DNA of 64,000 bases from a virus. Lineage: Duplodnaviria > Heunggongvirae > Uroviricota > Caudoviricetes. Location of the stretch: the IMG/VR virus record IMGVR_UViG_3300045988_158256. One strand, 5' to 3'. The first letter of the stretch is position 1, and the number at the start of each line of letters is the position of its first letter. Under the pieces are notes generated by a model. That model did not search any database. It was not told the origin of the DNA and saw nothing but the letters and a program-made list of their open reading frames with translations. This document shows, piece by piece, positions 9,294 to 10,134 of the stretch. Position numbers and translations under genes: made by a program.

Positions 9294-9317
9294 CACAAAA
9301 AAGCCCCGTTCAGGGGC
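9294..9317 (-). terminator. rho-independent terminator of the T5orf172-like gene
   Basis: gcccc-gttca-ggggc hairpin followed on the minus strand by a T-run, just past the stop at 9325. Confidence 0.6.
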
Positions 9318-9324
9318 ATCAGTG

Positions 9325-10134
9325 TTATTTGCTAAGAGCAGCGAATAATCGTTCGAAATCGATAGTATCTATAGCACGCGTAAGCGCCGGAAGTTCAGCC
9401 TCAAAGTACCCGTGTCGATCGTAAAAGAAGGGACCGAAGAGCGAGGCATGTTGGATTCTACTTCGCCCCAGCCCGGACACACAGTTAAGCCCATTACCGG
9501 CTAAAAGGCTAAAAAACTTCTCTGGATTATCGTGGTAAAGCTGGGAATCAATGGTGGCGGTTAACTCTTCCATAGGGAAGCACACCCGCCCTGTATCCCA
9601 GGGATATTTAGTCCGAAGCATAAACATTGCTTTCAGCAATTCACATTGAGCGCGGATCGCGTCCGGTTCATAGCCAGATATGGAGACATAAGCCACGTCC
9701 CTCATTCCTGCGTCATCTTTGAAAGTCACGATAGAAGTAACATCCAGCTCTTTTTCGAAAGAGCAAGCAGCATCTACTGGACGCTGAAGTAAATCATTCG
9801 ACTTAATGCGCTCGAGAATCCCTCCCCACATATCATTTAGATATTCGATATGAGCCAAAACCTTATCAAGACACTCTCGTGTAAACCATTCAGTATGCCC
9901 GCCACCGACGCTTTTCCCCCACGGCGCATTCCAGGGGAAAAAGGTTGCGTGTAAAGCCCGCTCAAGATTAACCATTGCCAAACGTGTACCACGATAGACC
10001 CGTGAAAGCGCAAAATCGGGACTCACTTGTAGCCCTTTAAACCGTGCCAATGGACCACATGAAATGCCGATTTTAAAAGTATCTCCGTTCTCTGGCACCA
10101 GAACGTAGAGGTAGTGTTGTTTCTCTTCTTGCAT
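9325..10134 (-). CDS. T5orf172 / GIY-YIG-like nuclease domain protein with unknown C-terminal domain
   Basis: N-terminus YLYVLV...FKIGIS...LERALH...GGHTEWF matches the T5orf172 (MUG113) pattern; stand-alone gene with its own terminator between rep control iterons and the par promoter. Confidence 0.55.
   Translation of the reverse strand: MQEEKQHYLYVLVPENGDTFKIGISCGPLARFKGLQVSPDFALSRVYRGTRLAMVNLERALHATFFPWNAPWGKSVGGGHTEWFTRECLDKVLAHIEYLNDMWGGILERIKSNDLLQRPVDAACSFEKELDVTSIVTFKDDAGMRDVAYVSISGYEPDAIRAQCELLKAMFMLRTKYPWDTGRVCFPMEELTATIDSQLYHDNPEKFFSLLAGNGLNCVSGLGRSRIQHASLFGPFFYDRHGYFEAELPALTRAIDTIDFERLFAALSK

Follow-up and report, generated by a model that had tools for sequence, protein, structure and literature searches.

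A T5orf172/GIY-YIG nuclease-like gene as the end-piece of an exchangeable p0111-type replicon cassette in P1-like phage-plasmids

The nuclease-like gene and its replicon cassette

The region between repA and parA of a P1-like phage-plasmid was analysed in a stretch of 64,000 nucleotides (the window; IMG/VR virus record IMGVR_UViG_3300045988_158256, Caudoviricetes), and all positions refer to that stretch at its full length. A gene for a T5orf172/GIY-YIG nuclease-like protein was located on the minus strand (9325–10134; 810 bp with the stop codon, 269 aa), where it is the last gene of an alternative, p0111-type plasmid replicon cassette (9259–11517, minus strand) that replaces the incC–repA–incA segment of P1. 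The gene is an integral, conserved yet fast-evolving end-piece of an exchangeable replicon cassette and occurs in four divergent alleles; this is new here, as is a predicted winged-helix targeting domain, possibly Rep-like, in the encoded protein. The gene is most likely a selfish or competitive passenger and not a replication or partition factor.

The gene was assigned from its open reading frame (ORF), a match to Pfam PF10544, membership in PHROG 2876 and the name given by the Prokaryotic Genome Annotation Pipeline (PGAP). The product starts MQEEKQHYLYVLVPENGDTFKIGIS, and the segments YLYVLV, FKIGIS and GGHTEWF (within ...GGGHTEWF) are all present in the translation. Seven nucleotides past the stop codon, the hairpin GCCCCTGAACGGGGC was found on the minus strand (9317–9303), followed by the T-run TTTTTTGTGC; together they form an intrinsic terminator (GC hairpin and T-run; 9293–9317, minus strand), identified by a terminator scan and by reading the letters, and the par promoter follows some 55 nt further downstream. 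An incA-like iteron array (10168–10426; direct-repeat families D3–D5, inverted pairs I5, I16 and I19) immediately precedes the nuclease ATG, with five GTTGACTATGCGCGA-type repeats in one orientation (10168–10307, spacing about 31 bp) and two copies in the other (10387–10426). The array is followed by repA (10427–11311, minus strand; 294 aa), which encodes a Rep3-type initiator of the p0111 type (Pfam Rep3_C and Rep3_N), and by five origin (incC-like) iterons upstream of repA (11393–11492, spacing 21 bp; direct repeats D1/D2), laid out as in P1 incC as annotated in NC_005856. Downstream of the nuclease gene, and outside the cassette, the order is P1 par promoter, parA, parB and major head gene 23. 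The promoter (Ppar; 9211–9239, minus strand) was located by promoter scan at the position of the annotated P1 Ppar, within a block 99 % identical to P1 that ends at 9258, and the P1-type partition operon (6942–9156, minus strand; parA 7960–9156, parB 6942–7943) was confirmed by Pfam matches.

Most of this layout had been proposed in an earlier reading of the letters alone (the original prediction), and the stand-alone gene with its own terminator between an incA-like array and the parA promoter was found as described there. The distance from the repA stop (10427) to the parA start (9156), given as about 1.27 kb, is 1,271 bp, as compared with 558 bp in P1. The statement that incA abuts the par promoter in P1 holds approximately, with about 190 bp between the two.

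The boundaries of the cassette were determined by blastn against reference P1. The window matches P1 at 99.2 % over 4001–9258; this block ends upstream of the Ppar −35 box, some 20 nt from it, and 67 nt past the nuclease stop codon. The match returns (98.2 %) at 11518, a position within oriR that has the incC iterons on one side and the Dam/DnaA sites on the other. The cassette measures 2,259 bp and holds the origin iterons, repA, the incA-like iterons and the nuclease gene; the P1 segment in its place, the IncY cassette, measures 1,500 bp (incA, repA, incC iterons). RepA of the window is 42 % identical to that of P1, ParA 99.7 % and ParB 100 %. Because the right-hand boundary (11517/11518) cuts through oriR, only the iteron half of the origin is exchanged, and the half with the DnaA boxes and Dam sites is retained. 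The nuclease gene is absent from reference P1, as the original prediction expected, but the insertion into the rep–par module that it envisaged was rejected in its simple form: the gene is one end of a replaced cassette of 2.26 kb. Phage-plasmids of the RCS47/SJ46 type are known to carry this cassette as the p0111 replicon, and the swap is the known IncY to p0111 replacement; window positions 6900–11400 are about 99 % identical to the phage-plasmids RCS47, SJ46, JL22 and others.

An autoregulated repA promoter is expected, by analogy with P1, at the iterons at 11393–11492. The promoter scan gave no sigma-70-like promoter between repA and the nuclease ATG, and read-through from the RepA-autoregulated PrepA is therefore the likely expression route. 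An iteron-like sequence, TCGCTTATAGTCAAC, was noted within the repA coding region (10694–10708), 93 % complementary to the incA iteron at 10293–10307; it might be an additional RepA binding site. No RNA family was found in the region with Rfam, and the base composition is unremarkable.

Domain architecture of the protein

Residues 8–85 matched Pfam T5orf172 (PF10544) with E=2e-5 and 25.5 bits (curated cut-off 20), and the three other alleles described below scored 25.1–27.8 bits; PHROG 2876, which carries the label 'unknown function', was matched with E=8.5e-194. The catalytic domain comprises codons 1–105 (9820–10134, minus strand), and its residues Y10, K21, G23, R31, E58, H62 and E82-W83-F84 are invariant in an alignment of 20 homologues; Y10, K21, G23, R31, H62 and E82 are kept also in the four alleles, which are only 25–44 % identical. 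By analogy with GIY-YIG enzymes and with the E180A variant of Odn (PMC8263062), the invariant residues would include the catalytic Tyr, Arg and Glu. Y10, K21, G23, R31 and E82 cover the motif positions of the superfamily (the Tyr of 'GIY', the 'K/Y-I-G' motif, an Arg and a metal-binding Glu).

A structural model was calculated with AlphaFold2 (AF2) from a four-sequence alignment (mean predicted local distance difference test (pLDDT) 72.7); the single-sequence model (pLDDT 35) was of no use. Two domains were obtained, at about residues 1–105 and at 127–269. In Foldseek searches of viral models (BFVD), all 22 matches at E≤1e-3 were T5orf172, homing-endonuclease or CapR-homology proteins. A profile score above threshold, an alpha/beta fold and the motif residues thus agree in placing the protein in the T5orf172/GIY-YIG superfamily, and both the signature and the fold named in the original prediction were recovered. 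Similarity to SLX1 is at the level of the fold only (11–17 % identity); SLX1 is a eukaryotic, structure-specific endonuclease that carries a RING/PHD finger beside its nuclease domain and depends on SLX4.

In the original prediction the C-terminal part (~170 aa) matched nothing recognisable. The last 140 aa model as a winged-helix domain (codons 127–269; 9328–9756, minus strand), with a predicted order (helix 157–173, strand 183–187, helix 188–194, helix 198–211, strand 215–220, strand 227–230) that corresponds to the canonical winged-helix topology. The assignment as a winged-helix DNA-binding domain is, for a modelled structure, reasonably supported. A Foldseek search of the PDB with this domain gave nothing significant; the top ranks were held by RctB, Rep WH1, Slx1 and RepE54, and a 'Rep-initiator-like' identity of the predicted winged helix is a lead only. 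A relationship to the RepA, ParA or ParB of the same elements was rejected at the sequence level (hhalign probabilities all <1 %). The domain had no match in Pfam at E≤10, in NCBIfam or in PADLOC, and a word-index search of 5.8 billion proteins with the single sequence and with a profile gave no relatives of it beyond the three full-length ones; a sequence profile search of the PDB likewise added none, its best match being a GIY-YIG protein (E=0.24). A CapR/DUF723/DUF4397-type domain was not found in the protein. The C-terminal domain is the fast-evolving half: in the two closest allele pairs the N-terminal domains are 62 % identical and the C-terminal domains 27–32 %.

Relatives and exchange of the cassette

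When 1.84 billion representatives were searched exhaustively with HMMER, only three other full-length relatives emerged, P0004 (44 % identity to the window protein; locus L003), P0010 (27 %; locus L004/L005, Salmonella) and P0011 (25 %; locus L006). Each occupies the repA–parA interval of a different P1-like element and is oriented alike, and the L006 allele likewise has a hairpin and T-run 3′ of the gene. P0010 and P0011 alleles are absent from PLSDB plasmids. The automatic call for P0004 (311 aa) begins 41 codons early (L003 8001–8123) and crosses the incA iterons; homology starts at M42 (MENDKKYYLYILV).

The window and L003 differ most in the nuclease, which at 44 % identity is the fastest-evolving gene of the neighbourhood (RepA 84 %, ParA 89 %, gp23 80 %), and the divergence is mostly C-terminal (N-terminal half 62 %, C-terminal half 32 %). 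The exchange of a cassette was seen a second time, in a diverged lineage, when L003 was compared with L004: UpfB (98 %), ParA (100 %), ParB (98 %) and gp23 (99 %) are nearly identical, as against 41 % for RepA and 28 % for the nuclease. DNA similarity breaks inside oriR and again 63–84 nt past the nuclease stop, and these are the boundaries found for the window against P1. In both swaps examined the nuclease allele changed along with the rep cassette, as the co-inheritance with the replicon anticipated in the original prediction would have it. With 83 % identity between RepA of L004 and that of P1, the L004 cassette is of the IncY type and yet carries the nuclease gene, while P1 has none.

Flanking sequences were compared between IncY and p0111 loci. 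On the par side, the mean distance is 0.0087 between the types and 0.0099 and 0.0072 within them; the flanks leave the two types unseparated, and the 2.2-kb par flank of one IncY plasmid is identical to that of a p0111 locus. The oriR-proximal flank is partly linked to cassette type. The cassette is exchanged repeatedly between near-identical backbones.

These swaps bear on a rival explanation by way of Odn (ICP1 Gp88), in which a RepA_N-like DNA-binding domain is fused to a T5orf172 nuclease and which cleaves the PLE satellite at its origin (Barth et al. 2021, PMC8263062). The protein studied here may combine the same kind of nuclease with an initiator-like winged helix (predicted), in a setting of iteron replicons and replicon-type turnover; it differs in that Odn belongs to the genome that attacks the replicon, and the present gene lies inside the replicon cassette. 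A Rep-type WH1 domain could accordingly aim the nuclease at the iterons, or RepA-bound iterons, of rival replicons and so serve as an incompatibility weapon. Besides the Odn precedent itself, the Rep-initiator winged-helix proteins that head the Foldseek list for the PDB, the position beside iterons and repA, and the switching of the allele with the rep cassette in both swaps would fit. However, those Foldseek matches are not significant, and the C-terminal domain lacks sequence similarity to RepA, ParA and ParB. The window and L003 moreover share one iteron consensus and have RepA proteins 84 % identical, yet their C-terminal domains are only 32 % identical, which is a poor fit to a domain constrained to read those iterons; conversely, L004 and L006 have nuclease domains 62 % identical with RepA only 43 %, so the pairing of nuclease and replicon type is not strict. 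An origin-directed nuclease of this kind is therefore considered unlikely. Its fuller form, in which a replicon-borne weapon, as a plasmid counterpart of Odn, would be produced in a surge once the repA promoter is derepressed in a newly entered cell, destroy or gene-convert the resident and drive IncY/p0111 turnover, is judged improbable too.

The distribution of relatives also bears on a role as single-gene anti-phage or anti-plasmid defence cargo, directed at unrelated invaders and using the replicon as a mere safe harbour. T5orf172 nuclease domains are known from defence contexts, the gene evolves faster than its neighbours, and Mrr_cat/WYL and GmrSD_N/SNase genes accompany some of the distant N-terminal homologues in islands. 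The more distant N-terminal homologues have no general linkage to rep or par genes, and their contexts are unrelated phage-like, integrative and conjugative element or defence-island ones. The full-length relatives, however, occur only in the repA–parA slot of P1-like elements, which points to a target tied to these elements and not to general defence. No PADLOC-DB 2.0 model was matched at E≤1 by any of the four alleles, neither a partner gene nor a sensor domain is present, and about 15 % of alleles are inactivated (see below). General defence thus appears to be a rather unlikely function.

Prevalence and annotation

The gene proved to be less novel than the undescribed cargo it had been taken for. 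The whole 2,259-bp module is present at ≥95 % identity in about 400 PLSDB plasmids, the protein is encoded in 402, and 412 of the 5,426 complete E. coli genomes (7.6 %) carry the gene. It is annotated in hundreds of RefSeq records (PGAP name 'GIY-YIG nuclease family protein') and has been touched upon as an ORF in two papers, as the unknown ORF 'gp57' of JL22 (PMC9603915) and in pSvP1, with '2 orfs inserted between repA and parA' (Venturini et al., PMC6906374). No functional study of the gene was found in the published literature; it is known as a sequence and uncharacterised in function.

Seven of the 421 E. coli occurrences are on chromosome-labelled records (e.g. NZ_CM169485.1 at 5.13 Mb), as integrated P1-like elements or assembly artefacts. 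In phage phi456 (OR339795.1, 39982–40788) the nuclease gene is labelled 'terminase small subunit', and several RefSeq phage records (NC_042128.1 and others) give the Rep3-type RepA as 'replication helicase'; both are likely misannotations. A 149.6-kb IncFIB/MOBH plasmid (L010, NZ_CP019262.1) holds only the C-terminal 171 codons of the nuclease, together with P1-type parA, parB and the start of gene 23; repA is gone, and an arsenic-resistance region adjoins this remnant, a piece of P1-derived par DNA that a larger plasmid has taken up. The window repA is weakly similar in DNA (about 69–71 % over 130–165 nt) to RepB-family initiators of many Klebsiella plasmids of about 110 kb, the replicons of which may be distant p0111 relatives; no nuclease homologue was found in those plasmids by tblastn.

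Selection, decay and dispensability

Variation was assessed in 47 p0111-allele loci (the window, RCS47 and 45 loci from IMG/VR and GTDB), 46 of them complete, as L053 ends at a contig edge. The ratio of nonsynonymous to synonymous polymorphism (pN/pS) was 0.31 for the nuclease gene, 0.15 for upfA, 0.06 for parB, 0.02 for repA and 0.00 for parA. Nonsense codons were found in seven of the 45 full-length copies: W68* at one locus, S112* at five and Q228* in the SJ46 contig (L028). The copy at L051 is interrupted near codon 98 by an insertion that carries a 389-aa ORF on the opposite strand, which brings the broken alleles to 8 of 46 complete loci, through three independent nonsense mutations and one insertion. 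These natural nuclease knock-outs (L028, L033–L037, L048 and L051) are usable as ready-made controls. A protein cluster of 229 N-terminally truncated calls that start at M102 stands beside 1,241 intact sequences.

Because P1 lacks the gene, broken alleles occur and pN/pS is 0.31, the nuclease gene is dispensable, under purifying selection that is relaxed but real. A core replicon or partition component would be required wherever the replicon functions; P1 and IncY plasmids are without this gene, and 8 of the 46 loci hold a broken copy. An essential role in replication was rejected on the same grounds, as P1 has no copy and nonsense alleles persist.

The decay could mean that the gene is a relic, a nuclease gene without current function that hitch-hikes on a successful replicon. 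A pN/pS far above that of the neighbours, the four independent disruptions among the complete loci and the many truncated calls all suit such a passenger. Its ratio nevertheless stays far under 1, some 85 % of alleles are unbroken, and four alleles at 25–44 % identity have all kept the ORF, the active-site residues and the two-domain length, for which long-term purifying selection is required. Present lack of function is considered very unlikely.

A nuclease domesticated as a DNA-binding regulator, for instance of par or rep expression or of incA handcuffing, was weighed in the same way. CapR of PLE, a domesticated repressor of the same broad family, is a precedent for a T5orf172 protein turned into a regulator in mobile-element conflicts (PMC10448857). 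The gene lies between incA and Ppar and is probably co-transcribed with repA, because no promoter of its own was found, and both points would suit a regulator. CapR differs, however, in having a zinc-finger DNA-binding domain and no need for catalysis, whereas catalytic-type residues are invariant here across very divergent alleles. Replication and partition proceed in P1 and all IncY relatives although they lack the gene, and nonsense alleles persist in complete deposited phage genomes such as SJ46. Regulation by a domesticated nuclease is thus regarded as highly improbable.

A possible homing or competition nuclease

The GIY-YIG endonucleases I-TevI and Seg/Mob of T4 are proteins of about 250–270 aa in which a linker connects an N-terminal GIY-YIG domain (about 100 aa) to a C-terminal DNA-binding domain; their genes are intergenic and sporadic among close relatives, and flanking markers are co-converted (marker exclusion). 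The protein encoded in the window has the same domain order and size, and its gene is likewise intergenic and sporadic. It differs in belonging to another GIY-YIG subfamily (T5orf172, with K for Y in 'YIG'), in the type of its DNA-binding domain and in that the co-converted 'marker' would here be an entire plasmid replicon.

Since its anatomy fits a free-standing GIY-YIG homing endonuclease, the explanation preferred, tentatively and at just under an even chance, is a site-specific nuclease deployed when P1-like elements come into conflict, either homing with its replicon cassette or eliminating a co-resident rival. The resemblance to a homing endonuclease gene (HEG) extends to the slot between essential genes, the position at the edge of the exchanged tract, the sporadic presence among near-identical genomes, the rapidly changing DNA-binding half and the partial decay where the gene is fixed. 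At this fixed intergenic site, used in all four alleles, the gene is absent from P1 and the examined IncY plasmids and present in p0111-type elements, with flanks 98–99 % identical. A nuclease domain with a separate DNA-binding domain is present as predicted from the model. Similarity breaks 63–84 nt past the stop in two independent swaps, and the par flank is not linked to cassette type. With regard to expression signals, a terminator is present and no sigma-70-like promoter was seen between repA and the ATG.

The nearest described counterparts are the T5orf172 HEGs of ICP1, T5-like and other phages (Barth, Dunham & Seed 2023, PMC10448857), which belong to the same nuclease family (PF10544, Foldseek). 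They too are free-standing beside essential genes and modular, with a fast-changing DNA-binding half. In lytic phages they occupy genetic-exchange boundaries (PMC10448857), a pattern matched by the breaks just past the nuclease stop. Differences lie in the DNA-binding domain, for which 87 % of the T5orf172 HEGs use CapR/DUF723/DUF4397 zinc-finger domains (PMC10448857) and the present protein a predicted winged helix, and in the setting, which is structural or replisome operons of lytic phages there and the plasmid-maintenance module of a temperate phage-plasmid here, where homing is only putative.

The following course of events would be consistent with a homing or competition nuclease. The product would be a sequence-directed endonuclease of two domains, a T5orf172-type GIY-YIG domain and a winged-helix DNA-binding domain joined by a linker, encoded last in an exchangeable cassette of origin iterons, repA, incA iterons, nuclease gene and terminator. 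Transcription would proceed at a low level by read-through from the repA promoter; as this promoter is RepA-autoregulated, nuclease expression would peak on entry into a RepA-free cell, where a burst might occur. The protein would then cut a related P1-like genome without the nuclease, or with a different cassette, near the rep–par junction. The rival would be destroyed, or would be repaired from the nuclease-carrying genome by way of two conserved flanks, the par promoter and, at the opposite end, the DnaA/Dam half of oriR, whereby the nuclease gene and the whole cassette would be copied. In this scheme we infer the nuclease activity, the target, the expression route and the causal role in exchange.

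Several observations weigh against this scheme. IncY cassettes are joined to P1-type par (ParA 398 aa, ParB 333 aa) or to P7-type par (ParA 401 aa, ParB 321 aa), and the breakpoint between the two par types lies exactly at the first incA iteron in many IncY plasmids with P7-type par (e.g. L059 and L060). As P7-type par is joined directly at the incA edge, modules generally meet at the incA/Ppar junction, whether a nuclease gene is present or not; module junctions recombine without the gene, and the nuclease protein is therefore not required for cassette exchange. In p0111 replicons the gene is essentially fixed (about 401 PLSDB records with the module, about 401 with the gene), and no empty p0111 allele available for homing was found in PLSDB. 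The incA–Ppar spacer of P1 holds no remnant of the gene (blastn with word size 7, local alignment and six-frame translation). To these are added the missing promoter upstream of the ATG, the small alignment behind the structural model, and the pN/pS of 0.31, which is equally consistent with any weakly selected accessory gene.

Implications for P1-like phage-plasmids

P1-like phage-plasmids are common carriers of extended-spectrum β-lactamase (ESBL) and mcr genes in Enterobacteriaceae, and surveillance typing makes use of the IncY and p0111 replicons. The annotations 'replication helicase', 'terminase small subunit' and 'hypothetical', which are frequent around the p0111 cassette, call for care. 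Were the gene only a decaying passenger, the message would be a smaller one, that the p0111 'replicon' is a three-part cassette. If it is true that the nuclease biases which cassette wins on an encounter of two P1-like elements, this would explain the shuffling of IncY and p0111 replicons across near-identical backbones, would add a nuclease-based mechanism to plasmid incompatibility, and would extend the finding of nucleases at exchange boundaries from lytic phages to plasmid maintenance modules.

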